Shown here: positions 4,821 to 18,719 of the stretch, piece by piece
How positions within the stretch are numbered: the first letter of the stretch is position 1
Layout: each line of letters opens with the position of its first letter
Position numbers and translations under genes: made by a program
Notes under the pieces: generated by a model
Database searches by the model: none
Seen by the model: only the letters and a program-made list of their open reading frames with translations
Told to the model about the DNA's origin: nothing
Assembly: GCF_044324785.1 (NCBI RefSeq)
Contig: NZ_CP172127.1
Length of the DNA: 64,000 bases
Direction: 5' to 3' (one strand)
From: Escherichia coli
Lineage (GTDB): Bacteria > Pseudomonadota > Gammaproteobacteria > Enterobacterales > Enterobacteriaceae

Positions 4821-5870
4821 ATGAAGGTTGATTCAATGGCCGATAACATCCCACAAGCTCCTCAAGGTGAGTTTGTTCTTTTCACCAGTGCTGATGGTCA
4901 AACCCGCGTTGAGTGTCGTTTTGAGTCTGACACCTTGTGGCTTTCTCAGGCTGCAATGGCAGAGCTTTATCAAGTTAGCTCTCAAGCAATCACCCAACAC
5001 GTAAAAGCTGTCTATTCTGAAGAAGAGCTTGAGCAAATTTCAACTTGTAAGGATTACTTACAAGTTCAACTGGAAGGTGGCAGAGAAGTAAAGCGAAGCA
5101 TTCGTCACTACAGTCTTCCGGTTATTCTTGCAGTAGGATACCGAGTTCGCTCAACACGTGGCACCCAGTTCCGCCAATGGGCAACCAGAATGTTGCAAGA
5201 ATACCTAATCAAAGGATTCGTCATGGATGACGAGCGCCTGAAAAATCCGCCCATTGGCCATTCTGCTGTGCCAGATTACTTTGATGAAATGCTGGAACGC
5301 ATTCGTGATATCCGAGCTAGTGAGCGTCGCGTTTATCTGCGAGTCAAAGAAATCTTTACCATGGCTGCTGATTACGAGCCATCTAACCAAGAGACCAACC
5401 GCTTCTTCCAAACCATTCAGAATAAGCTGCATTATGCTTGTACGCATATGACGGCTGCTGAGCTTATCGCCAGCCGTGTGGATGCCAGTAAGCCGGATAT
5501 GGGCTTAACCAGCTATAAAGGCGATGAAGTGCGCAAGACAGACGTTACTGTTGCCAAGAACTATTTGCGTGAAGACGAAATCAAAGAGCTTAATCGCATC
5601 GTCAATATGTGGCTCGACTTTGCTGAAGACCAAGCACTGCGTCGCAAGCAGGTATTTTTACAGGACTGGGCCGATAAGCTTGACCAGTTCTTGAGTTTTA
5701 ACGATAGAGATGTATTAAACGGTGCAGGAAAAATCTCCAAGAAAGACGCTGATGACAAAGCGAAATTGGAGTTTGACCGCTTTGCCCAGCAGCGCCGTCG
5801 TTTAAAAGAAGCCGAAGGCGCACGGGCCAATATCGCAGCCCTCAAGGCCATACTAAAAAAAGATAAATAG
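4821..5870 (+). CDS. RhuM-family protein (alternative start at ATG 4836)
   Basis: N-terminal segment LFTSADGQTRVECRFESDTLWLSQAAMAELYQVSSQAITQHVKAVY matches the RhuM family N-terminal region as I recall it; 20 bp downstream of the preceding gene, same strand. Confidence 0.55.
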   Translation: MKVDSMADNIPQAPQGEFVLFTSADGQTRVECRFESDTLWLSQAAMAELYQVSSQAITQHVKAVYSEEELEQISTCKDYLQVQLEGGREVKRSIRHYSLPVILAVGYRVRSTRGTQFRQWATRMLQEYLIKGFVMDDERLKNPPIGHSAVPDYFDEMLERIRDIRASERRVYLRVKEIFTMAADYEPSNQETNRFFQTIQNKLHYACTHMTAAELIASRVDASKPDMGLTSYKGDEVRKTDVTVAKNYLREDEIKELNRIVNMWLDFAEDQALRRKQVFLQDWADKLDQFLSFNDRDVLNGAGKISKKDADDKAKLEFDRFAQQRRRLKEAEGARANIAALKAILKKDK

Positions 5871-5927
5871 CCGATATAGTACAGCCCTGATCTCTAATGA
5901 GTTGAGGGCTGTGTTGTAAGATCATAA

Positions 5928-6604
5928 CTATAAAGGATTATCCATCTTAAAATCGTCGATATCGCCTGTCATTTTGAATAGATTGGTGTCATTCCAACGG
6001 CACAGTTGTCTAACCCGCATTAGATTTGAGTTGGCTCTGCGGATTATTGAGAAAGCATCTTCAACAGCAGTAATCACCGATTTTTCCCAATCTTGTGCTC
6101 GGGTAAAGGTGCTTTGTGAATAGCGATAATTGCCCTCACGGGGGAGGTAATGGCTGATCACCTGGTATTTGTCAGAATTCTTTTTAGGTTTAAACTCGTT
6201 GTAAACCCAGAAAATTTCGAGTTTTTTGTTTCTTTGCCTTACACGACAACCAAAATGACCTGGGTAGCCTTCAGAGTTTTTACCTCTATGTGCAACGTTG
6301 TTCAGCCAGAACAAGTCTGCAATTTTTTGTGCTATGTAGAAGTAGCGGAGCTGTTCTATTTCGGTTGATTTATGGGTGTAGTGTAGATATTGCTCTGATA
6401 TGGTTAAGGAAAAAGCATTGCGTCGTCTTGATTAACATTTGTGCTATTGACAATAAAGGTTTCCCAAATATTAATTTGTGTTTCTAGTCCTTTAAATGAT
6501 TTTGAGAAGGCTTCTATGTACTCAGATTGCGGTTGATTTCCCCCATTTAGTGCTGCACCAAATGTAGCTATCTGTTGTTCTAAAAATGAATGATTTTTGG
6601 TCAT
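5928..6604 (-). pseudogene. Hypothetical AT-rich gene, apparently frameshifted (66-aa frame 6404-6604 continuing in +1 frame to 5928)
   Basis: Good SD (AGAGGA) before ATG at 6604; second frame opens just before the first frame's stop and runs ~155 codons with no ATG (ORF track used TTG at 6314); abutted by the IS3-family TIR. Confidence 0.35.
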
Positions 6605-6630
6605 TACATAATCCTCTGTGTGGTTGATAC

Positions 6631-6664
6631 TGCGTATTTTCATGAAAGGAGATCACTCAATAAC
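6631..6664. repeat. IS3-family left terminal inverted repeat (34 bp)
   Basis: Exact reverse-complement match to 8296-8329; begins TG. Confidence 0.8.
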
Positions 6665-6712
6665 CCCCCTGTGTCAGCATAGTTGTCGCCTCAATTTTTT
6701 AAGGAGATAACA

Positions 6713-7225
6713 ATGCCAGGACAACCAATACCAAATGAGCTCAAAGAAAAAGGACTGATATGGCTTTTGCCACCATACTGTTGGTCACACCGTCAGATAG
6801 CCCGGAAGCTGAAGATCAGTGCCTCAGTTGTATCAAAATGGAGATGTGAGTTAGTGGAGCAAGGACTTTTACCTGAAAATGAAAAGATTACCTCCGTTGA
6901 TGTTGAAGACTGGACACCGGAGCGTCGATTCTCAGTTGTTCTTGAGACGGCTACGCTGTCAGAAATGGAACTTGCTGATTATTGCCGACGCATGGGATTG
7001 TTTGTTGAACAGGTTAAAGAATGGCGGGCTATCTCAATTCAGGCGCATGAAAAGAAATTGACGGAAAATATCCGAACAGACAGGGCATTGCGTGACGCAA
7101 AAAATAAGTTACGAGAACTGGAGAAAGAGCTTAAGCGCAAAGATAAAGCTCTGGCGGAAGCAGCTGCCCTGCTTATATTAAGGGAAAAGTTCAATGCCCT
7201 CTGGGACAACAGCGAGGAAGACTGA
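6713..7225 (+). CDS. IS3-family transposase OrfA (HTH plus leucine-zipper region)
   Basis: SD AAGGAG 6 nt before ATG 6713; C-terminal heptad-like LRELEKELKRKDKALAEAAALLILREKF. Confidence 0.6.
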   Translation: MPGQPIPNELKEKGLIWLLPPYCWSHRQIARKLKISASVVSKWRCELVEQGLLPENEKITSVDVEDWTPERRFSVVLETATLSEMELADYCRRMGLFVEQVKEWRAISIQAHEKKLTENIRTDRALRDAKNKLRELEKELKRKDKALAEAAALLILREKFNALWDNSEED

Positions 7226-8252
7226 CCCCTCTCCTGGAGCGGCATAAAATTATTTCTCTTGTCCGTGAGGCCGTCGCCAACGGCGCCCGGAAAGGTCAGG
7301 CTTGTAGGTGTATCGGTATTTCTATTCGGACACTTCAGCGCTGGACTAATGGCAACATCATCACCACGGACCGAAGATCCGATACTGTAAACAGCTCTCC
7401 CCGAAATAAGCTGTCAGAAGCGGAAAGATTGCGAATACTGGAGTTGTGCAACTCTCCAGAGTTTGCATCCTTGCCTCCAAATGTGATCGTACCAACTCTG
7501 GCAGACAGAGGTATTTATATTGCTTCTGAATCAAGTTTTTATCGTGTACTGAAATCAGCCAAGCAGTTGAAGAAACGATCCCGTGAATGCCAGTATAAAC
7601 TGGCCTGATGTACTCAGGGCCGTTGCACCGAATCAAGTCTGGAGTTGGGACATCAGCTATTTGCCGTCCTGGGTCAGAGGCCAGCATTTTTACCTCTATA
7701 TGATCGTCGATATTTACAGTCGCAAAATTATTGCTGCTGAGGTATTTGCCAGCGAATCTGGAAAACATGCAGCAGAACTACTCCAGCGTGCAGTATGGAA
7801 TGAAAAATGTTCATCCAACAATCTGGTACTCCATTCTGATAACGGTGGTCCCATGCGCAGTGACACGTTGTTGGCGAAAATGTATGCGCTTGGTGTGCTA
7901 AGTTCTTATTCCCGGCCAAGAGTCAGTAATGATAATCCTTACTCAGAATCTTTGTTCCGGACTCTCAAATATTGTCCCTGGTGGCCTGAGAACGGTTTTC
8001 GCACTATTGATGATGCCAGAGTATGGGTAAACCAGTTTTGTAAACTGGTACAACTTTGAACATAAGCACAGCGGGATCAAATACGTCACGCCAGCCGAGC
8101 GTCATCAAGGTAATGATATGAAAATACTGGCGGCCAGAAAAGCAGTATACCAGCTGGCACGCGAACAGCATCCTGAACGTTGGGGAAAGCATCTACGTAA
8201 CTGGGACTACATATCAGAAGTCTACCTGAATCCAGAAAAAGAGGCTGCATAA
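7222..8252 (+). pseudogene. IS3-family transposase OrfB (DDE integrase core), interrupted by extra frameshifts/stops
   Basis: Integrase-core sequence split over three frames (...CQYKLA stop; VWSWDISYLP...SDNGGPMRSDT...KYCPWWP; HSGIKYVTPAERH... ending 8252). Confidence 0.55.
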
Positions 8253-8295
8253 CGTAATTTTATTACAAAAGGCGACAACTACCTTGAAAAACGCC

Positions 8296-8329
8296 GTTAT
8301 TGAGTGATCTCCTTTCATGAAAATACGCA
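8296..8329. repeat. IS3-family right terminal inverted repeat (34 bp)
   Basis: Exact reverse complement of 6631-6664. Confidence 0.8.
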
Positions 8330-8866
8330 CCATGACCATACCCTCTGCAACCTGACCATCGTAGTCACGCAGCGTCAGTGAACCTCCGAACAACTGTTTT
8401 ACCCGGTACATCGCTGTTTCCGCTATCGAACGACGGTTATAATCTGTTGTCCATTTACACCGGGCATTACTTCCGGTCAGCCGCTGATTAGCCACTGCAC
8501 GGTTACGGTCTTCGTATTCACCGGGCTAGTAACCCGCACCTTTTCGGGAAGGGGTAAGCGCGCTGATTTTCTTACGCCTCAGTTCATCGTGACAGAGTCG
8601 GGGGTCGTAAGCCCCGTCTACCGCTGCAGCCATGATTTTTCTGTGAGTCTGTTGGAGAAGCCCCGGGAAGGCTTCTGAGTCCGTGACGTTGTTCAGCGAC
8701 AGGTCTGCACAGACAATTTCATGTGTGTTGCCATCAACAGACAGATGCGACGCCCCTCTTTGCCGTGCTTTTTGGCTTTCCTTTCGCCTTCCCCAAAGAC
8801 TTTTAGCCCGTTGGAATCAATCACGAGGTGTATGATTTCACCCCGGGTGGGGATTTATGTATAAGA
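8330..8866 (-). pseudogene. IS903-like (IS5-family) transposase remnant, C-terminal half only
   Basis: Minus-strand translation gives ...HLVIDSNGLKVFGEGE...THEIVCADLSLNNVTDSEAFPGLLQQTHRKI...RSIAETAMYRVKQLFGGSLTLRDYDGQVAEGM, recognisable as IS903-type transposase; in-frame stops present; cut by the IS3 TIR and lacking the N-terminal half and IS ends. Confidence 0.6.
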
Positions 8867-9032
8867 AACAGCGTATTCGTGAGGGGTGAGCCATGAATAA
8901 AATCCCTTTTGAAGTATTAATCCACTCTGAAAATGCATTAATCTGCGCAAAGGAAATGGACGCGTTATTAATTAAGTTAATTGATATTCCGGAAAGTGGC
9001 GATAAAACATATTCGATGACGGACAGGCGACA

Positions 9033-9305
9033 ATGTGGTTATCTGTGCTGGCGTTTGGCAGACAGGCCGAAGCACTGGCCAGACACCAGAAAGGCGAACT
9101 GGTAAGCGTGGCAGGTAACATGCAGGTCAGCCAGTGGACAGGGCAGAACGGGAAAACGCGGCAGGGACGGCAGGTTATCGCAGACAGCGTAATCAATACT
9201 CAAACGGTGCGGCCAGGAGGAAGCAGACGCGAAACCACAGGTACACAGGGTAATCAGCCACCAACGGGAGGCGACGCCACTTACGGAGATGATATACCCT
9301 TATGA
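9033..9305 (+). pseudogene. ssb: Single-stranded DNA-binding protein (plasmid/ICE-type SSB) remnant lacking its N-terminal part
   Basis: ...VLAFGRQAEALARHQKGELVSVAGNMQVSQWT...GDATYGDDIPL resembles the SSB OB-fold C-terminal half and acidic DDIPF-type tail; upstream frame is closed. Confidence 0.55.
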
Positions 9306-9322
9306 ATTAAGCGGGGCGCAAC

Positions 9323-9643
9323 ATGAACAACAGCACACTGAAGAGCCGGACAATAAGCGACGCGACAGCGGAAGAACTCGAGAGCAGGGGACTGTGGCGA
9401 CGTGCTGCCAGAAGGTGGCAGGATGTGATGATTACTCTTGAGAAAGACAGTCACAGACAGCTTGCAGTAATGAGAGCAAGGGAATGTATCAGGAAGGCAA
9501 AACGCCCGATACCTGAAAGCCGTATTGATATTCATACAGTCAGAAAGGCCGCAGACAGGACAATACAAAAAATGGGGCTACCGTCGCTTACTGATGAAAT
9601 ATGGCGCGATTACCCTGATAGCGTTAACGATGACGGTTATTAA
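9323..9643 (+). CDS. Hypothetical protein (106 aa)
   Basis: ORF directly after the SSB remnant; no recognisable motif. Confidence 0.25.
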   Translation: MNNSTLKSRTISDATAEELESRGLWRRAARRWQDVMITLEKDSHRQLAVMRARECIRKAKRPIPESRIDIHTVRKAADRTIQKMGLPSLTDEIWRDYPDSVNDDGY

Positions 9644-9926
9644 CTGGCGGGGGAAACACGATACCAGCGGGCGTGACTCGGGAGAATATATACCGCTGGT
9701 GGAACATTACCGGCCCTGATGGCTGGTGGCGTGCGTTACGACCTGAAAGACCATCCATGCGGGAAGGTGACACAGGAGCACCTGGCGAACGCGGGGAAGC
9801 GACTGGATGAGATTAAGAAAAAACAGCAGGAGCGCAGAAAAAGTAACCGTCTCATTAAAACGTCTTTCGCCTCCCTTTCCTGTTTCCTATGCTAATGTCC
9901 ATTTTCGCAGTAAAAGGACATTTACG

Positions 9927-10440
9927 ATGAATGCACGAAAGGCGGTACTGGCAGATAATCCGGAATTGATCCTGCGTTTGCTACAACTGAAATTTGACGA
10001 GACACTGTCGTACCCGCGCATTTCTGCACAGACCGGTGTCAGCAAAACCGCTATTTTTTCTCTGGTGAGGCGATTTCATCAGGTATTCACTGACGGGCAT
10101 CTTTCTGGTGAATATTCCTGCGTGCAACTGACCGGGCTCTTTTCCCGGGGCGATAATATTCAGCCCCGACAGTGACTCAGCCTGTAAAAACAGAGAAAAC
10201 CCGTCGGAACCGATTTTCACCAGAGTAAAAATGGAGACTTGTTCAGCAAACTCTTTTACCCGGAGCCTGTGTGGCCCAGATTGCACGAGAGTCTGGCATC
10301 AATGATAATGTTATTTTCAAATGGCTCAGACTCTGGCAAAACGAAGGGCGTGTTTCGCGGCGTCTTCCGGTAACAACCACTTCTGACGCAGGCGTTGAAT
10401 TATTACCTATGGAGATAACGCCGGATGAGCAGAAAGATCC
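9927..10440 (+). pseudogene. IS-type transposase N-terminal HTH remnant (two HTH segments in different frames; family uncertain, possibly IS630-like)
   Basis: MNARKAVLADNPELILRLLQLKFDETLSYPRISAQTGVSKTAIFSLVRRF (SD AAAGGA upstream) and, in another frame, MAQIARESGINDNVIFKWLRLWQNEGRVSRR; truncated where the ugpB remnant begins. Confidence 0.3.
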
Positions 10441-10980
10441 GATGATTCCCCTACCGCCAGCTTTTCGCCTGCGCCGGTATACGTTTCTTTATCTTTGCCC
10501 TGCATCACCCACAGGCTGGCTCCGCCGATAATGGCGTTTTGTGGTGCATCTTTCGCGTCAGCGTCGTAAGGCATCATGCCTACGCCGTAGTTGAATTTGG
10601 CGTACTCGCGAATGTTGGCAAGAGAACCGGAAGAGGCGGTGGTCATCGCGCAATCACCTCTATAGAACTTCTCGGTGGATTCATCCTTACGCCCGACGTA
10701 GATGAAGTCGCCCTTCTTGTTCATCTCCTCGAGCATGACGATGTGTTTCACCTGCTCCGGCTTGTTGAACTCCAGCACCGCGTCCGTGGCGTCAAAACCG
10801 TTGTTTTTGCTGGCAAACGGCAGACCGTTCCTGGCGCTAAAGTTTTCCAGTTGTATCCACCTCTTTGCCCATTTCCCCTTCCATAGAGTTCCAAAACGGA
10901 ATGGTCGTCACTGCCTGTGCATTGCCCATTAACGCCAGTCCGAGCACCAGTGATGAAGCTGTATAATGTAACGGTTTCAT
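10407..10980 (-). pseudogene. ugpB: sn-glycerol-3-phosphate-binding protein UgpB remnant (internal deletion, frameshift, truncated C-terminus)
   Basis: Minus-strand ATG at 10980 gives [42 protein letters not shown] (UgpB signal peptide/N-terminus), then after a frameshift jumps to ...[42 protein letters not shown]...[18 protein letters not shown] and terminates. Confidence 0.7.
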
Positions 10981-11735
10981 CGTTTATCTCTCTTGCTTGT
11001 TGTACCTGATGTGCAAATTCACTCGTTTTATGCTCGCGGGATTACATATCATGCCCGAATTGCAGAAAAATAACTTTTTATTACATGTGTAAGACAGTAA
11101 AACCTCAGAAAGATGACAGTGTGGTGCCGGCGCGGGTGAGGAAAAATGGAAGATGGGGAATGTATAAGCGGGAAAATAGGAGGGCCTGTGGATTGTAGAT
11201 AATGTGCTCATCGTTTTCATGCCGGATGAGACATAAACACTTTTATCTGAGCATTTCTATGTATTCGGACAGTTGTTCTTGGCATCCAATGGTGCAGGTT
11301 CTGTAGTGTGTGGTGGTAGCAATAGCCTCAGCTTCATTACAATATTTATTATCTCAAACATTCAAATGTCCTTGGCCCACTTTGATAGTCACTTTGTCGT
11401 GGTTATTATGTCTTTCCTTTTCCTAAAGCCCCATTATCTGTGCTGCAGCTTTCCCTCCATCAACGAACCAACAACCAGCAATGCCTGTCCCCCATAACAG
11501 CCCGGAAAATGGCACATTCTCAGATGATTTATCCCGCGAGCTATCCCGCCTACAGCTAATCGACCTGTTTAATACATCTTGACAGTCTGCTGGCAAGGTT
11601 ACCCTTCCCAATATTGTCCGTTTTTAACATATCTAATACGAGCCCCCATCAAATATGCTTCGTGTTCACTGTAAGTGACTAAAAGTGCTGTCTGCCCTGC
11701 CTCATGCAAAATATCACGAACTTCACGGCTCAGTC

Positions 11736-12237
11736 CTACCCTTGTTTTTTATCCAAGCTGGAAAATGGTTCATCTAGCAACAGGATATCTGGATTTGGAA
11801 CCAGTGACCTTGCAAGGGCAATACGTTGCTGCTGACCTCCTGAAAGTTCATGAGGATAGCTGTCTGAATAGTGGAATAAATCCACCATTTTCAACAGTTC
11901 TGTAACTCTGGTTCGCTGTACATCTCTCGGCAGTCTTCTCAGACCAAAGCCACGTTTTGTGAAACTGTAAGGTGGGGAAAGAGCGCATATTCCTGAAAGA
12001 CTATACCGACATGACATTTCTCCGGCGGAAAATGCATATCTGCGCTGGCCACACAATGCTGTGATACAAAAATTTCCCCTTGTTCAGGCGCTCAAAACCA
12101 GCTACAGCACGTAGTACTGTTGTTTTTCCACAACCTGATGTACCAAGCAGACATGCCAGTTCACCTTTACAGACTGACATACCCCCCGCCCCGCAATACA
12201 GGATATGGGCTATTGGGATAAACAACATGGACATCAT
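11736..12237 (-). pseudogene. ABC transporter ATP-binding protein remnant (frameshifted)
   Basis: Walker A LLGTSGCGKTT and signature/Walker [16 protein letters not shown]...[12 protein letters not shown] lie in two different frames. Confidence 0.55.
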
Positions 12238-12267
12238 TAATACATAAAGCTGTTTCTTCAGACATAA

Positions 12268-12868
12268 TCAATCCTCTGATTTCAGTCTTTCAGCTGGAAC
12301 AAACAAAATAACCGGAAATGTCCCTGCAAGAACAATCATTAAAGCAGAGATGGCCCCTTCTTCAAAAGTTCCACGGGCTGCTTCAGCATAAAGAAGTGTT
12401 ACTGGCAGTTCTTTCATCGCATCAGTGAAAACCAGCAGGGCACTGCTCACCAGAGCAACACAGGAAAGTGAACCCGAACAAAAGTTCCTGTACCATTTTC
12501 TCCCAGCAGACGTGAGGCTTGTTCCAGTGACTCTGGTATACGTCCCAGCCGGACATCAAGTGCGCCGATGGCTATTGCCTGAAATCGCATCGTACAGCAA
12601 ATCACCAACAGGACACCGACAGACATTAAAGGTAACCCCCTGTAATCCAGTAGTTCCGCCAGCCAGCGGTCATTTAGGGAGTCAGAAAACCAATCGCCAG
12701 AATCGTGCCTGGAAAGGCATAACCCAGCGACGCCACTCTCATCACACCGCGCCTGAACAGTGGCATAGCGTTGAGGAATTCCGGGCATTCCAGACTACGA
12801 GCAGACTGACAAAAATTACGACAAAGCGTTGAAGGAAGCCAGCGCGCGGACTGACAGGACTTTACCAT
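12268..12868 (-). pseudogene. ABC transporter permease remnant (split over three frames)
   Basis: Hydrophobic permease-like fragments incl. ...AMKELPVTLLY... and ...ALDVRLGRIPESLEQASRLLG... in successive frames. Confidence 0.45.
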
Positions 12869-12918
12869 AAAAACACAGGCTAACCGCGCCTGCGTTTTTA
12901 ATGACGGATGAAACAGAA

Positions 12919-14451
12919 TCAGGTGCCGATTATGCCGCCGTCGGCTTTTACGATAACGACAGTTGAGGAGCGCGGACGACCAGCCTTATCGCCGTCAGGC
13001 CAGCTTGATACTGCCGTCGGATGCTGCGGATCGCTAAGCCCTTCGCTTGGCTCGCCAGGGTGCTGGATGTTAATAAACAGCGTCCGGTTATCCGGAGTGA
13101 ACGCGATGCCGGTGATTTCGCAGCCGCGCGGGCCGGTCAGGAAGCGGCGGAACTCATTGGTACCGGGGATCGTCGCCACCATCTGGTTGTTGCCCATGCC
13201 TTTGTAATCTTTAATATTTATGGTTGATGACGACACGTCGGTCTGGATCCATAGCACGCCGCGGTGATCAAAGCTCAGGCCATCGGCGCTGCCGAATTCC
13301 GCACCCTTCATGCTGCCTTTGGTTTCCAGTTTGTCTGTATCGGTGCGACCGCCCATCACAAGAATATCCCAGGCAAACTGCAGCGCGGTCGGGTCACCGT
13401 TATGCTCCAACCAGTGAATGATGTGGCCGTAAACGTTTTTGGCGCGCGGGTTGGCCGCATCCACTGGCGCTTTTCCTTCCTTACCGCGATCGCTGTTGTT
13501 GGTGAGCGTGCAGTAAACGCTGCCGGCGTGATATGGATCGACCGCAATCCACTCCGGGCGGTCCATTTTAGTGGCCCCCACGGCGTCTGCCGCCAGACGG
13601 GTTTTAATCAACAGGTCGCCCTGGTTTTCAAACCCTTTACTGGCGTCGAGCCCATTTTGTCCGAACACCAGCGGTAGCCACTCGCCTTTGCCGTCGTCGT
13701 TAAATTTCGCCACGTACAGAGTGCCTTTTTCCAGCAGGTGCATGTTGGCTTTGCGATCCTGCGGGTTGAATTTTCCTTCCGAGACAAATTTATATATGTA
13801 TTCGAATTTCTGGTCATCGCCCATATAGACCACAACGCGGTTATCCGGGGCAATTGTCACCGCTGCGCCTTCGTGTTTGATGCGACCAAGCGCGGTGTGC
13901 TTGCGCGGCACTGAATGCGGATCGTATGGATCGATTTCCACCACCCAGCCGAAGCGGTTCGGCTCGTTCGGCGTGGCGTCGACGCTGAACCTTTTATCCA
14001 CTTCGTTCCAGCGGTAAGAGTCGTCGCTCCCGCTGATACCGTAACGTTTTTCCAGCGGGTTCATCTCTGCTTTTTTTACGAAAATATCGGACCAGTTCTC
14101 TTCACACGTCAGATAGGTGCCCCACGGCGTAAATCCGTTGGCACAGTTCTGCATGGTGCCGAGAATGATTTCGCCTTTCGGATCGTCAACTGTTTGCATC
14201 AGTGGGTTATGCAGCGCCGGACCGGTGATTTTCATCGGCGTGTTAACGGTGATGCGGCGTGCGAACGATGACGGGCGCACCACTTCCCAGCCCAGGGGCA
14301 CTTTTTTTACTTCAATGACCGACACGCCCATCGCGTTCTGGCCTTTAAGAGCTTTATCGGCGCTCCAGTTGGCATCGCCATCTTTAAACAGTAGACCGTT
14401 ATCGATGTATTCATGGTTTATGGCAAGCAGGCCGTGATCGGAGCTGTTCCC
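12919..14451 (-). pseudogene. phoX: PhoX-family (DUF839-like) secreted phosphatase gene, 3' part, separated from its 5' part by the prophage
   Basis: Reading frame continues exactly from the fragment at 52793-53245 across the target-site duplication (...SLPQGGN | SSDHGLLAINHEY...); the first 16 codons of ORF 12919-14499 are phage-end derived. Confidence 0.65.
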
Positions 14452-14500
14452 TGATGCGCCGCGCGATAAATGCACTCTATCTTGTGCGATAAATGGCATC
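14452..14500. repeat. Prophage left terminus with two putative transposase-binding motifs
   Basis: GATAAATG at 14465-14472 and 14488-14495; mirrored at identical offsets at the right end. Confidence 0.6.
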
Positions 14501-14529
14501 CACGCGGCGTTTCATTATTTGAAAAAGAA

Positions 14530-15102
14530 TTACATTTCAGGTTGCGTTATGACAGTCCCAACAGGGTGGTAGCGGTAGATCGTTGACAGTCCAATATCAT
14601 AGATAATTGCCAGCCGCTTTCTGTCATACCCTTTCTGGAGCAATCTTGCGATCTGCTCATGCTGCTCCTTCGTCAGTTTCGGGCGACGTCCTCCAACTCT
14701 TCCTTGTGCTCGCGCAGCAGCCAGTCCTGCCAGCGTGCGCTCAACTATCAGTTCACGCTCCATTTCTGCCAGTGCACCCATCATATGAAAAAAGAACCTT
14801 CCCATCGGAGTGCTGGTATCGATTGAATCCGTCAGACTGCGAAAATTGACACCTTTTGCGCGTAGCTCTTCTGTGAGAGCAATGAGGTGTTTCATTCTTC
14901 TACCCAACCGATCCAGCTTCCAGACCACCAATGTATCCCCTCTTTTAAGGCACTTTAAAGCGCGTTTCAGGCCTGGTCGTTCCGACTTGGTTCCGCTCAT
15001 TTTGTCCTCAAAAATCTGTTCACATCCTGCGCACATTAATGCATTGCGTTGCAAATCTGTGTTTTGGTCATTTGTTGACACACGTATGTAGCCAATCAGC
15101 AT
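14530..15102 (-). CDS. pin: Site-specific DNA invertase, Hin/Gin/Pin serine recombinase family
   Basis: MLIGYIRVSTNDQNTDLQRNAL...GDTLVVWKLDRLGR...MGALAEMERELIVERT is the invertase catalytic domain plus C-terminal HTH; adjacent to tail-fibre cassettes. Confidence 0.9.
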   Translation of the reverse strand: MLIGYIRVSTNDQNTDLQRNALMCAGCEQIFEDKMSGTKSERPGLKRALKCLKRGDTLVVWKLDRLGRRMKHLIALTEELRAKGVNFRSLTDSIDTSTPMGRFFFHMMGALAEMERELIVERTLAGLAAARAQGRVGGRRPKLTKEQHEQIARLLQKGYDRKRLAIIYDIGLSTIYRYHPVGTVITQPEM

Positions 15103-15147
15103 TAAAAATACTCCCTTTTGAGTGGTTAAAGTACTGAGATAATGTGG

Positions 15148-15173
15148 GGAGGATTTGAGAGATAAACGTTGGT
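15148..15173. other. Putative invertase crossover site A (gix/pix-like), core AAACG-TT-GGTTT
   Basis: Core AAACGTTGGTTT at 15155-15166 at the start of the conserved ~200-bp fibre box; identical inverted core at 16779-16790. Confidence 0.45.
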
Positions 15174-15686
15174 TTAGGAGAAGGCTCGGCGCTACCCGTT
15201 GGTGTGCCTGTTCCGTGGCCCACCGCCACACCGCCAGCAGGCTGGTTAAAGTGCGACGGGCGCGCCTTTACAAAAGAACAATATCCTGTTCTGGCCAGAG
15301 TCTACCCGACCCTCCGTCTTCCCGATTTACGCGGTGAGTTTATCCGTGGATGGGACGACGGGCGCAAAGTTGATACAGGACGTAAGTTGCTGTCCGCACA
15401 AGGGGCAACGCTGTTAAGAACAGCAATGCTGGATTATTATAACCAGGACACTACGGGAACCTCGGGGATAGTCGGCATGGGATTCAACAATGAAGATTCC
15501 ATTACAGACCTTCGTGAGGGCAGCTTTAAAATGCCGGACGGGACAACATTCAGCGATCCTGTCGTGGCAATGTCAGACAATGGTATGCAGGCTACTATTC
15601 TGACCTCTATCAGAAGCGGGTATGCGAAGGGTATCACTGTCAGACCCCGTAGCATTGCACTTAATTACATTGTGAGGGCAGTTTAA
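15150..15686 (+). CDS. Tail-fibre C-terminal cassette 3 (start-less alternative variable domain)
   Basis: Frame opens after TGA at 15147-15149 with no ATG; encodes the conserved box GEGSALPVGVPVPWPTATPPAGWL...RGEFIRGWDDGRK then a unique C-terminus ending NYIVRAV. Confidence 0.7.
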
Positions 15687-16300
15687 TGAGTAACACTGCA
15701 GTTCTGGATGAAAACGGTATCGCCACTGTAGCGGGCGAGATCACTGTATATCACTATGACGAGGAAACCCGGGAATACACCTCATCCTCTGTGGAGTATC
15801 TCGCCCTTGGGGTGGGTACTCCGGCACATTCGTGCGCCGATGCACCGCCGGAGGCAATTTCGGGTTACGTGGTTTGCCGGACTGCCACGCTGAACGGGTG
15901 GGAGCATGTGCCTGATCACCGCGGCGAGACGGTATACAGCACGGAGAACGGTAACCCCGTTCTGATTACCCAACCGGGTGATTACCCGGCGGACACCACC
16001 ACAAAACAGCCGGCCACGCCATGGGATACCTGGAACGGTGAGGCGTGGGTAACCGATACTGAACGGCAGCGAGCCGCAGAACTGGAGGTTGCCAGACAGC
16101 AACGCCAGCAACGGGTGAAACAGGCGATGGCGTCCGTCGATCTTATCAACCTCAAACTGCGTGCTGGTCGCAGTCTGACACCAGAAGAAACGGCAAAACT
16201 GAACGCCGTGCTGGATTATATCGACGAGCTGAACGCACTGGATATCAGCACGGCACCTGAAATCAGCTGGCCGGAAGCGCCACTGGCACTTGCCAGCTGA
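15686..16300 (+). CDS. Tail fibre assembly protein (Tfa/U-like)
   Basis: ATG overlaps cassette-3 stop (TAATG); 204 aa, in the position and orientation of a Tfa chaperone for cassette 3. Confidence 0.65.
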   Translation: MSNTAVLDENGIATVAGEITVYHYDEETREYTSSSVEYLALGVGTPAHSCADAPPEAISGYVVCRTATLNGWEHVPDHRGETVYSTENGNPVLITQPGDYPADTTTKQPATPWDTWNGEAWVTDTERQRAAELEVARQQRQQRVKQAMASVDLINLKLRAGRSLTPEETAKLNAVLDYIDELNALDISTAPEISWPEAPLALAS

Positions 16301-16306
16301 ACGGTA

Positions 16307-16780
16307 TCACGCCGCCCTCACGATATAGTTAAACGCGATATTGCGGGGGCGGGTTATGTTAAAGAATGCTCCGTTTAATTCGGCTTTTGCGCGACTGTTT
16401 GTTCCACCCAGAATTGCGTACCACAAATAATCGCTACGGTAATTCCCCGCAAACACCTTATCGCCGCCATAGTCAATATTATTTCCGTTACTCATGTACG
16501 AGATATCCAGCGAAGAATCGTTATCGTCATGACCGCCGACCAGTGTACCTTTCTGCCATGAAAGCAACTTACGCCCCTCGTCAATCTTGCGCCCGTCGTC
16601 CCATCCACGGATAAACTCACCGCGTAAATCGGGAAGACGGAGGGTCGGGTAGACTCTGGCCAGAACAGGATATTGTTCTTTGGTGAACGTAGCTCCGTTG
16701 CACTGTAACCAGCCTGCTGGCGGTGTGGCGGTGGGCCACGGAACAGGCACACCAACAGGCAATGCAGAGCCTTCCCCCAA
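16307..16780 (-). CDS. Tail-fibre C-terminal cassette 2 (unfused alternative variable domain, TTG-initiated frame)
   Basis: Begins with the same conserved box as cassettes 1 and 3 but has a different distal sequence; lies directly after the main fibre stop in +1 frame. Confidence 0.55.
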   Translation of the reverse strand: MGEGSALPVGVPVPWPTATPPAGWLQCNGATFTKEQYPVLARVYPTLRLPDLRGEFIRGWDDGRKIDEGRKLLSWQKGTLVGGHDDNDSSLDISYMSNGNNIDYGGDKVFAGNYRSDYLWYAILGGTNSRAKAELNGAFFNITRPRNIAFNYIVRAA

Positions 16781-16798
16781 ACCAACGTTTTTATGCGG
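16773..16798. other. Putative invertase crossover site B (inverted relative to site A)
   Basis: + strand AAACCAACGTTT at 16779-16790 is the reverse complement of the site A core. Confidence 0.45.
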
Positions 16799-18719
16799 CC
16801 CTTACGATGTAATTAAACGCAACATTGCGGGGGCGCATTGATATCCATGCCCCGGTAAAATTATCCTCCGCTGTCCTTTGAATACCCGTTATAGAGTTAT
16901 CTGCTGATGCAGGAACATAATCGCTATTATTTCCTGCTTTAGGATTAGCTGGGTTTCCAACGGTTATAACAGAATCAGCAGTAGCAAAAGCGATACCTAC
17001 TTTGACATTAGTATTCAGATCGTAACCGTAATAATCCTGCAAAGCTGTACGAATAAATGTTGCAGCCTGACCACTTAGCAATGAACGCCCCGTATCAACT
17101 TTGCGCCCGTCGTCCCATCCACGGATAAACTCACCGCGCAAATCGGGAAGACGGAGGGTCGGGTAGACTCTGGCCAGAACAGGATATTGTTCTTTTGTAA
17201 AGGCGCGCCCGTCACACTTTAACCAGCCTGCTGGCGGTGTGGCGGTGGGCCATGGAACAGGCACACCAACAGGCAGTGCAGAGCCTTCCCCCAAACCAAG
17301 GTAATTGAGGACATCTTTTATACTGCCCTTAGCGATAATAGCGCGACCAATAGCTGTAAGGGTTGCCAGCGCTGCGCGGTCTGCTCCGGTAAAATAAGGC
17401 AACCGATCTGCTGCAGTGGCAAGTCCTGCCAGAGCAGTGAGCGTGGCATCTGCCGGTTGTTTTCCGTTTGCCAGATCGTATGCAGCCTTGACCGCTTTCG
17501 GTGTGGCGGCCAGTATTTCAGACGTGCTGTTGATGGCACTGCTCAATTGTATGGTGCCTTTTGCCGTCAGCGAGGCAGCAGGCACTCCCGTTATCTGACT
17601 CCACGGGTGAGTGTGGCTGACGGGCGCCTTGCCGGCTGCAAGGTCGTATGCAGCCTTGACCGCCTTCGGCGTGGCAGCCTCAGTTTCTGATTGACTGTCC
17701 GTGGCGCTGCTCAGTTGTACGGTGCCTTTTGCCGTCAGCGAGGCAGCAGGCACTCCCGTTATCTGACTCCACGGGTGAGTGTGGCTGACGGGGGCCTTGC
17801 CGGCAGCCAGGTCATATGCAGCCTTGACGGCCTTTGGTGTGGCGGCCAGCGTTTCAGAGGTGCTGTTGGTGGCACTGCTCAGTTGTACGATCCCTTTACG
17901 GGTCGTTGTTGCATCCTGGGCTGTGTATTTTCCCCGGGCCAGATCATACGCGATTTTCACAGCCTTCGGCGTGGCAGCCTCAGTTTCTGATTGACTGTCC
18001 GTGGCGCTGCTCAGTTGTACGGTGCCTTTTGCCGTCAGCGAGGCAGCAGGCACTCCCGTTATCTGACTCCACGGGTGAGTGTGGCTGACGGGGGCCTTGC
18101 CGGCAGCTAGGTCATATGCAGCCTTGACGGCCTTTGGTGTGGCGGCCAGCGTTTCAGAGGTGCTGTTGGTGGCACTGCTCAGTTGTACGATCCCTTTACG
18201 GGTCGTTGTTGCATCCTGGGCTGTGTATTTTCCCCGGGCCAGATCATACGCGATTTTCACAGCCTTCGGCGTGGCAGCCTCAGTTTCTGATTGACTGTCC
18301 GTGGCACTGCTCAGCTGTACGGTGCCTTTTGCCGTCAGCGAGGCAGCAGGCACTCCCGTTATCTGACTCCACGGGTGAGTGTGACTGACGGGTGCCTTGC
18401 CGGCTGCAAGGTCGTATGCAGCCTTGACGGCTTTTGGTGTGGCGGCCAGCGTTTCAGAGGTGCTGTTGGTGGCACTGCTCAGTTGGGTGAACCCCTTAGC
18501 TGTCAGTGTCGCGTCCGGGTGGTTACGGGAACGTACGTGTTCAGCCAGTGACTGTGCGGCTTCCTCCGTTTTTTTCTTCAGCCATTTCGTCCTGTTTGCC
18601 AGTTGCCGGGGGGCTCGATTTGATATCCCGTCAGCACCACCCAGAACCGGATCTGATGTCTCCAGTTGATAGATTTTTTCTTCCCACTTTTCTGTTTCAT
18701 TCAGGTTTCCCATAATCAA
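16791..18719 (-). CDS. Tail fibre protein (642 aa) with internal repeats and C-terminal cassette 1
   Basis: Repeated QLSSAT..SET.AATPKAVK.AYDLA.GK fibre repeat motif; C-terminal region carries the conserved box and ends NYIVRAA. Confidence 0.85.
   Translation of the reverse strand: MIMGNLNETEKWEEKIYQLETSDPVLGGADGISNRAPRQLANRTKWLKKKTEEAAQSLAEHVRSRNHPDATLTAKGFTQLSSATNSTSETLAATPKAVKAAYDLAAGKAPVSHTHPWSQITGVPAASLTAKGTVQLSSATDSQSETEAATPKAVKIAYDLARGKYTAQDATTTRKGIVQLSSATNSTSETLAATPKAVKAAYDLAAGKAPVSHTHPWSQITGVPAASLTAKGTVQLSSATDSQSETEAATPKAVKIAYDLARGKYTAQDATTTRKGIVQLSSATNSTSETLAATPKAVKAAYDLAAGKAPVSHTHPWSQITGVPAASLTAKGTVQLSSATDSQSETEAATPKAVKAAYDLAAGKAPVSHTHPWSQITGVPAASLTAKGTIQLSSAINSTSEILAATPKAVKAAYDLANGKQPADATLTALAGLATAADRLPYFTGADRAALATLTAIGRAIIAKGSIKDVLNYLGLGEGSALPVGVPVPWPTATPPAGWLKCDGRAFTKEQYPVLARVYPTLRLPDLRGEFIRGWDDGRKVDTGRSLLSGQAATFIRTALQDYYGYDLNTNVKVGIAFATADSVITVGNPANPKAGNNSDYVPASADNSITGIQRTAEDNFTGAWISMRPRNVAFNYIVRAA
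17286..17311. other. Putative crossover site C inside the main fibre gene (one half-site degenerate)
   Basis: Reverse complement reads TCAATTACC-TT-GGTTTGGGGGAA; right half conserved, left half diverged. Confidence 0.3.
17290..18510. repeat. Tandem ~300-bp coding repeats within the tail-fibre gene
   Basis: Shadow ORFs 17779-17994 and 18079-18294 are identical (300-bp period); 17834-18088 and 18134-18388 near-identical; protein shows about seven copies of a 45-55-aa motif. Confidence 0.75.

Follow-up and report, generated by a model that had tools for sequence, protein, structure and literature searches.

Helper-phage-dependent satellites of the PICI and capsid-forming PICI (cf-PICI) families are mobile elements whose architecture has been described (bioRxiv 10.1101/2022.09.08.507074), and a core gene set is available for the cf-PICIs (PMC10085698). 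The replication families listed for Gram-negative PICIs include SSB (PMC10111431), and in Escherichia coli cf-PICIs an SSB gene followed by a PerC-family gene is a standard pair (PMC3378721), which was also encountered in the loci inspected here. In O157, the element OI-51/CP-933C carries a P4-type integrase, AlpA, an alpha-like replication gene, SSB, the PerC homologue PchE and structural genes (Flockhart et al., PMC3378721). The prototype of the cf-PICIs is an element of EDL933 that possesses int, alpA and rep together with capsid genes of its own (bioRxiv 10.1101/2022.09.08.507074). Its size, and the fact that both descriptions compare it with the CFT073 and ED1a elements, lead us to infer that OI-51/CP-933C/Sp7 of O157:H7 is the same element as this prototype, EcCIEDL933.

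The window analysed here is a stretch of 64,000 nucleotides (64 kb) of E. coli DNA. A first-pass annotation had interpreted part of it as what IS activity had left of a conjugative plasmid or ICE leading region. The present analysis agrees that a mobile element has left a relic here, worn down by IS elements and deletions, but does not retain a conjugative plasmid or ICE leading region as its source. Judged from sequence, positions 8852–9840 are most probably (probability of about 0.9) what is left of the middle of a PICI or cf-PICI satellite dependent on a helper phage. Reassigning the fragment in this way, to a phage satellite instead of a conjugative plasmid, is of little importance alone. 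As a decayed mobile element within an IS-rich island, the remnant is ordinary, and all gene families in it are already known and already named by automatic annotation; it adds one more case of satellite decay within such an island in which a small regulator is left behind.

Layout, borders and distribution of the locus

The remnant (8852–9840, ~1 kb) is made of four satellite pieces, namely the start of a gene for a 75-aa protein, the C-terminus of an SSB gene, a PerC-family gene and the C-terminal third of a ProQ/FinO gene. It is bordered by an IS903-like fragment on the left and by an IS66-family end on the right (~9843). Of 5426 complete E. coli genomes, 49 carry the segment 8250–9950 at an identity of at least 99.8%, and in 19 complete genomes the chromosomal copy is 100% identical; the hosts of the 49 carriers are chickens, humans, swine and a kite. 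At the identical loci, the RefSeq/PGAP gene order is an IS3-family element, an IS5-family transposase pseudogene (minus strand), a 98-aa SSB, a 106-aa PerC, a 58-aa ProQ/FINO protein and an IS66-like TnpA pseudogene. The remnant sits inside an IS-rich genomic island, away from known satellite attachment sites. The same island also holds debris of conjugative elements, with MobI(A/C) at 5928–6314, ~2.5 kb to the left of the remnant, and TIGR03756/03757 ICE pseudogenes in related strains. An Rfam scan of 5000–12000 gave zero matches; a terminator-like hairpin at 8836–8852, located at the IS903/satellite junction, is within chance expectation.

The left neighbour of the IS903-like fragment is an IS3-family insertion sequence of 1699 bp (6631–8329, plus strand; IS3 family transposase according to PGAP), delimited by perfect 34-nt inverted repeats (6631–6664 and 8296–8329, TG...CA); position 8330 is the first base past the right repeat. 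The element has no target-site duplication and its left flank is unrelated to IS903, which rules out a simple insertion of IS3 into IS903. For these two reasons, the IS3/IS903 junction is considered a rearrangement.

The truncated IS903-like transposase reported earlier at 8330 was confirmed. It is a pseudogene fragment of an IS903B-like (IS5 family) transposase (8330–8851, minus strand), with 88% DNA identity to IS903B over ~526 bp; the match spans 8326/8330–8851, and at least 5000 plasmid records match it too. The fragment corresponds to about codons 125–305 of the 322-codon IS903B transposase and aligns to positions 701–1242 of a full IS903B copy (L014), within the transposase gene (646–1614). 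Truncation on either side has removed the two inverted repeats as well as the two ends of the gene, and PGAP describes the fragment as frameshifted, with an internal stop and without its N-terminus. A complete IS903 spans ~1057 bp and has an intact transposase as well as terminal inverted repeats; only this fragment of it is present. Its right edge (8851/8852) is an internal break, and both junctions of the piece are rearrangement scars rather than simple insertions.

On the right side, the left end of an IS66-family element with its TnpA pseudogene, frameshifted according to PGAP, occupies 9843–10352 (plus strand); IS66-like ends match from 9838–9843 onward in many genomes. The window is collinear with a metagenome contig (L010) up to 9840 and departs from it at 9840/9841, the start of the IS66-family left end.

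Broken genes of the remnant

All satellite pieces lie on the plus strand. The leftmost segment (8852–8892) comprises the end of the satellite gene located upstream of the 75-aa gene, together with a ribosome-binding region. It aligns to positions 6970–7017 of the satellite L003, weakly to ~8885 and solidly beyond, and a megablast match covers 8874–8999. The first 38 codons of the 75-aa satellite protein follow (8893–9008), with 75% amino-acid identity to L003:7018–7242, 75.6% identity over 45 aa to positions 7172–7306 of the satellite L015 and a match to phrog_2196 (E = 7e-4). In intact satellites, this gene sits between an Icd-like gene and DUF4222, while in the window the truncated ORF continues out of frame into the SSB sequence and stops at 9105. 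The homology to the 75-aa gene stops at ~9008 and that to SSB starts at 9015, and the intervening positions 9009–9014 mark a deletion junction at which ~2.9 kb were lost. In L003, 2883 bp separate the corresponding points, and in L015 ~2.8 kb. Given the 2883-bp gap in L003, a single deletion therefore took everything from the rest of the 75-aa gene through SSB codons 1–40, including DUF4222, the primase and an 85-aa gene.

The SSB piece (9015–9305) is a C-terminal stump, extending from codon 41 to the end of a satellite SSB of 136–140 aa. That it resembles SSB while lacking the N-terminus had been noticed at first pass, and both points are supported: Pfam SSB (PF00436) matches 9033–9302 with E = 5e-9 and 36.6 bits (cut-off 26), which refutes a chance match, but over profile positions 49–101 of 104 only, and alignments to the 136–140-aa relatives place the beginning of homology at codon 41 (position 9015), codons 1–40 being absent. 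With the TIGR00621 model, the stump scores 43.8 bits, below the cut-off of 53.95, the score of the full-length relative L002 being 59.7. Lacking Pfam SSB profile positions 1–48, the stump cannot form an OB fold. A functional SSB would have a complete OB fold and scores above the curated cut-offs; by its sequence, the stump is to be classed as a gene fragment derived from the SSB family. Its closest full-length relative is the 136-aa SSB P0010 of cf-PICIs (85% identity); identity to the SSBs of L002 and L003 is 68–69%. The acidic DDIPL tail is indeed present (...YGDDIPL), the relatives compared (L002, L003 and L019) ending in ...DDIPF, with Phe for Leu.

After the PerC-family gene, the PerC–ProQ intergenic spacer is retained (9644–9706) and aligns with positions 486–548 of the contig L019, up to ...CCGCTGGTGGAACA. 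In L019, a complete ProQ start comes after the spacer, and its sequence, MTKLTINRKPKGIYG, is the same as the N-terminus of ProQ in the satellite L004. In the window, the spacer is followed by the C-terminal remnant of a ProQ/FinO gene (9707–9840, approximately codons 122–165), as indicated by Pfam ProQ (PF04352; E = 1.7e-6, 28.4 bits for a cut-off of 27, only profile positions 70–108 of 109) and by comparison with L004. The DNA alignment to the L004 ProQ gene starts at window position 9706 and gene nucleotide 367, with a 1-bp gap, and in tblastx the remnant matches L004 8964–9128. The start site and the first ~121 codons (~0.38 kb) are deleted, and a 1-bp deletion in addition leads to a frameshift; the complete FinO-like RNA-binding domain that characterizes the family is not present.

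The SSB and ProQ stumps are presumably inert, although PGAP names both as proteins. Automatic annotation presents them as intact, the former as a 98-aa SSB that begins with ATA at 9009 and the latter as a 58-aa ProQ/FINO family protein, which can mislead surveys of SSB or ProQ paralogues.

Satellite relatives and decay of the element

The context of intact SSB relatives was inspected at 13 loci, nine found by DNA or protein search and four encoding P0010. All 13 sit in PICI or cf-PICI phage satellites. Their common backbone consists of a tyrosine integrase, AlpA or another HTH protein, an Icd-like gene, one or more small genes, DUF4222, a primase/helicase (of the D5_N/DUF5906, DUF927 or RepA type), a small gene and SSB. 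PerC and/or ProQ/FinO come after SSB, with PerC directly following it in L007, L008 and L015–L018, and ProQ/FinO in L004 and L005. Further downstream, the relatives have a block of capsid, protease, portal, connector, HNH, TerS and TerL genes, or a block of capsid, decoration protein and TerS genes, or else cargo genes. The loci encoding P0010 are cf-PICIs at the roxA-phoQ and cspD-clpS sites, each with Phage_integrase, Phage_AlpA, DUF4222, D5_N/DUF5906 primase, SSB, PerC, capsid, protease, portal, HNH and TerS/TerL. At the DNA level, positions 9015–9220 match annotated SSB genes at 80–90% identity (171 genomes in this band), and every one of the 246 matching places in complete E. coli genomes is chromosomal.

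A PerC protein search for a close intact ancestor yielded only two short metagenome contigs, L010 and L019. The gene order of L019 is SSB, PerC and an intact ProQ start. L010 has the same ProQ deletion as the window, without the IS66 element, and its next gene, only ~290 bp after ProQ, encodes a lambda Nu1-like small terminase (phrog_57, E = 5.5e-63). An intact element with >90% DNA identity is absent from the complete E. coli genomes searched, and a near-identical one (>95%) was not found in the collections searched.

The window shares homology and gene order with the non-core middle of PICIs and cf-PICIs (from the 75-aa gene to SSB and PerC/ProQ), and the satellite assignment rests on this homology and synteny of non-core genes, no core gene being left in the window. 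Neither the PICI core of SatelliteFinder in one locus (integrase, AlpA, primase-replicase, TerS and a capsid-morphogenesis gene) nor the 11 core components of cf-PICIs (including capsid, protease, portal, adaptor, connector, HNH, TerS and TerL) are found. Comparison of the satellites L004 and L015 with the 64-kb window by tblastx disclosed no further satellite genes, and tblastn with the L010 TerS disclosed no terminase homologue in it. The locus derives from a PICI/cf-PICI satellite yet is no member of either family, the core genes being absent. As to the type of the ancestor, the closest SSB (P0010), which comes from cf-PICIs, points towards a cf-PICI, and the order in L010, where ProQ is directly followed by TerS, points towards a classical PICI.

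Four events, listed from left to right without implying an order in time, would account for the reduction of the element to ~1 kb. The left part, from the integrase to the Icd-like region, would have been lost at the junction with the internally broken IS903-like copy (8851/8852). The ~2.9-kb deletion would have fused the 75-aa gene, after its codon 38, with SSB at codon 41 in a different frame, removing DUF4222, the primase and the N-terminal strands of the OB fold. The ~0.38-kb deletion, together with the 1-bp deletion, would have taken the start and first ~121 codons of ProQ/FinO. Insertion of the IS66-family element at ~9841–9843 would have cut off all downstream satellite DNA. Since the core functions are gone, as deduced from gene content, the element should no longer be able to excise, replicate or be packaged.

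The PerC-family gene and its possible function

The 106-aa ORF at 9323–9643 (plus strand), left unassigned at first pass, encodes an intact PerC-family regulator. Pfam PerC (PF06069) matches residues 11–99 over profile positions 2–89 of 90, with E = 5.9e-28 and 97.4 bits (cut-off 22.6), in other words a full-length match above the gathering score, and phrog_994 matches at 3.6e-28. The gene starts 17 bp past the SSB stop, as in L007, L008 and L015–L018, and its position is that of PchE in the O157 satellite OI-51/CP-933C. The protein is 97% identical to PerC of L010, 85% identical to the variant P0002 of L019, also of 106 aa, and 47–49% identical to the PerC proteins encoded after SSB in L007 and L008. 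The comparison with P0002 gives a dN/dS of 0.43 (10 synonymous and 17 non-synonymous differences), a value that mostly reflects evolution inside intact satellites. The possibility that the C-terminal VNDDGY is a fusion created by the ProQ deletion was rejected, L019 having the same ending followed by the intact spacer and the ProQ start; both this ending and the length of 106 aa are native and common to L019. A search by sequence for solved structures related to PerC gave none. A scan of 8200–10000 for sigma-70-like promoters found none, and any expression of PerC would therefore proceed by read-through or from a promoter missed by the scan.

PerC is the sole gene in the remnant that, from its sequence features, could still act. 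PchE represses curli and affects flagella in O157 (PMC7369912, PMC6265319) and, if transcribed, PerC might likewise regulate transcription as a small protein. Such residual activity is possible, though less likely than not; an active PerC would then be a candidate regulator in avian/extra-intestinal E. coli.

A different account of the present state of the locus holds that the other genes decayed but selection preserved PerC, which would have become a domesticated host regulator in a lineage of avian/extra-intestinal E. coli. Such an account agrees with a satellite origin and bears on present function only; it is possible but rather unlikely. Among its five broken neighbours, PerC alone is intact, but a 321-bp gene can escape disruption by chance. 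The 49 carrier genomes, from chicken, human, swine and kite hosts, conserve it at ≥99.8%, but their copies are almost identical, so that conservation may reflect recent common ancestry alone. The length of 106 aa is kept in the 85%-identical P0002 with a dN/dS of 0.43, but this ratio was mostly shaped within intact satellites. Lastly, the regulation of curli and flagella by the satellite homologue PchE lends the idea some appeal, which is tempered by the negative promoter scan. A more elaborate version, in which PerC would be a domesticated satellite regulator kept intact and expressed in avian/extra-intestinal pathogenic E. coli after decay of the satellite, and rewiring host genes, for instance for motility, curli or adhesins, in analogy with PchE in O157, is improbable.

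Alternative origins of the remnant

The satellite origin proposed above concerns the PICI/cf-PICI families, and a source in an ordinary temperate prophage or a P4-like satellite instead is very unlikely. An older paper does call the related OI-51 ‘P4 phage remnants’ (PMC3378721), the relatives have P4-alpha-like primase, AlpA and Icd-like genes, and the SSB, PerC and ProQ pieces match PHROG families. However, a tblastn search with the SSB in 50,697 phage records returned nothing and PerC matched only four phage records, at 33–40% identity, while the annotated relatives are devoid of tail and lysis genes and of the P4 markers psu, delta and sid, and fit the cf-PICI core set of PMC10085698.

The origin initially put forward, a conjugative plasmid or ICE leading region later eroded by IS elements, drew on the acidic C-terminal tip of a ‘plasmid-type’ SSB; such an SSB, of the F or IncI kind, would protect incoming single-stranded DNA, and a ProQ/FinO-family fragment nearby would also suit this origin. 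The conjugative origin of neighbouring DNA is real, given MobI(A/C) 2.5 kb to the left and the ICE pseudogenes elsewhere in the island, and PerC-family genes occur on 238 plasmids, though with ≤44% identity. The plasmid PerC matches weigh neither way alone, the family being found on plasmids, phages and satellites.

The search of the SSB remnant against plasmids, advocated at first pass, gave a different picture. In tblastn, the stump matched just 21 of 72,556 plasmid records at E ≤ 1e-5, although thousands of F- and I-type plasmids are present in the collection. Two of the 21, from E. coli and among the top three matches, were inspected and proved to be mis-filed chromosome pieces around a complete satellite, carrying pntB and mdtJI in one case, or potA, pepT, phoPQ and purB in the other. 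With the NCBIfam model PRK09010, the stump reaches 24.5 bits for a cut-off of 260. Neither close similarity to a plasmid SSB nor a context of psiB, ardA or transfer genes, as expected for a leading-region SSB, was found. With 0 of 246 E. coli DNA matches on a plasmid, 13 of 13 inspected intact relatives in satellites and the adjoining piece 8893–9008 being a satellite gene, a plasmid or ICE origin of the remnant is hardly credible.

Comparison with known systems

The SSBs of plasmid leading regions (F/IncI, with PsiB and ArdA) share with the stump the Pfam SSB family and an acidic C-terminal tip. The relationship is, however, a remote one at the family level, the canonical plasmid SSBs missing E ≤ 1e-5 against the stump; psiB, ardA and transfer genes are not found nearby, and the E. 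coli DNA relatives are all chromosomal. PerC of the EPEC plasmid pEAF and PchA–E of EHEC resemble the PerC of the window in belonging to PF06069 with nearly full-length coverage. PerC and Pch proteins activate target promoters, namely LEE1/ler, but the carrier genomes examined show no LEE context and the plasmid copies are at most 44% identical.

Closer parallels are found among the phage satellites. Classical Gram-negative PICIs (EcCICFT073-type; L003, L008 and L013) have the backbone of int, AlpA, Icd-like gene, DUF4222, replication gene and SSB, and PerC is present in L008. L010, the nearest relative of the block preserved in the window, has TerS soon after ProQ, which resembles PICI packaging more than that of cf-PICIs. 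Unlike classical PICIs, the window has no core genes left, and the SSB of L003 is 69% identical.

With respect to the E. coli cf-PICIs, whose prototype is EcCIEDL933, the window differs by being without integrase, AlpA, primase, capsid, portal and terminase genes, by a PerC that is only 47–49% identical and 16 aa longer, by having also had a ProQ/FinO gene after PerC, and by the location of the remnant inside an IS-rich island at no known satellite attachment site. In common with the cf-PICIs are the closest full-length SSB, encoded there with 85% identity, the PerC-family gene immediately after SSB (PchE in OI-51, PMC3378721) and the same 75-aa gene, which lies there between the Icd-like gene and DUF4222.

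The mosaic island and its IS3-family element

In the island that carries the satellite remnant, two minus-strand genes lie immediately to the left of the IS3-family element: one for a conjugative transfer protein of the MobI(A/C) type (5928-6314), whose ORF has no NCBIfam match, and a small hypothetical gene (6404-6604). The same island in related strains contains iha, RhuM, a type I restriction-modification system and pseudogenes of ICE origin (TIGR03756/03757). Debris of conjugative elements thus forms part of a mosaic island. The IS3-family element itself (6631-8329) is bounded by perfect inverted repeats of 34 nt, with no target-site duplication and with two flanks unrelated to each other, which suggests that its junctions arose by IS-mediated deletion or by recombination between two copies. 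A second copy, inverted and 97% identical, is found nearby in E. coli strain XDL.

Annotation of the SSB and ProQ stumps and the ProQ deletion junction

Both gene stumps are labelled as ordinary proteins (in other words, not as pseudogenes) by RefSeq/PGAP, namely the SSB stump as a 98-aa protein with an ATA start (9009-9305; WP_050554504.1) and the ProQ stump as a 58-aa protein (9719-9895; WP_000907124.1). Such annotation could inflate the counts of SSB and ProQ paralogues. A Chi sequence (GCTGGTGG) lies on either side of the ProQ deletion junction (9706/9707), at 9695-9702 and 9722-9729; the two copies have the same orientation, the first belonging to the PerC–ProQ spacer and the second to the interior of the ProQ gene.

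The Mu-like prophage

A Mu-like transposable prophage of ~38.3 kb (14452-52792), encoding a DUF935 portal-like protein, tail sheath, tape measure and tail fibre, interrupts a PhoX-family gene in the window. Its termini are TG...CA, a 5-6 bp duplication, GTTCC(C), is present on both flanks, and the corresponding empty site is found in strain XDL. Near-identical prophages occupy other sites in other strains, including one ST131 strain, and none of the complete E. coli genomes in the collection reaches 80% coverage of window positions 1-25000, a segment spanning the left prophage junction.

Comparison with intact satellites

Among the loci with intact satellites, two PLSDB records filed as E. coli plasmids, CP088587.1 (L007) and NZ_CP031350.1 (L008), have core chromosomal genes (pntB and mdtJI; potA, pepT, roxA, phoPQ and purB) surrounding a cf-PICI or PICI, and probably represent pieces of chromosome that were mis-assembled or mis-assigned. 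The satellite of E. coli STEC388 (L004) displays the usual backbone, from int to SSB, ProQ and PerC. Instead of capsid genes, its segment at 10198-17545 encodes three very large hypothetical proteins (~840, ~690 and ~920 aa), which may constitute a defence system carried as cargo.
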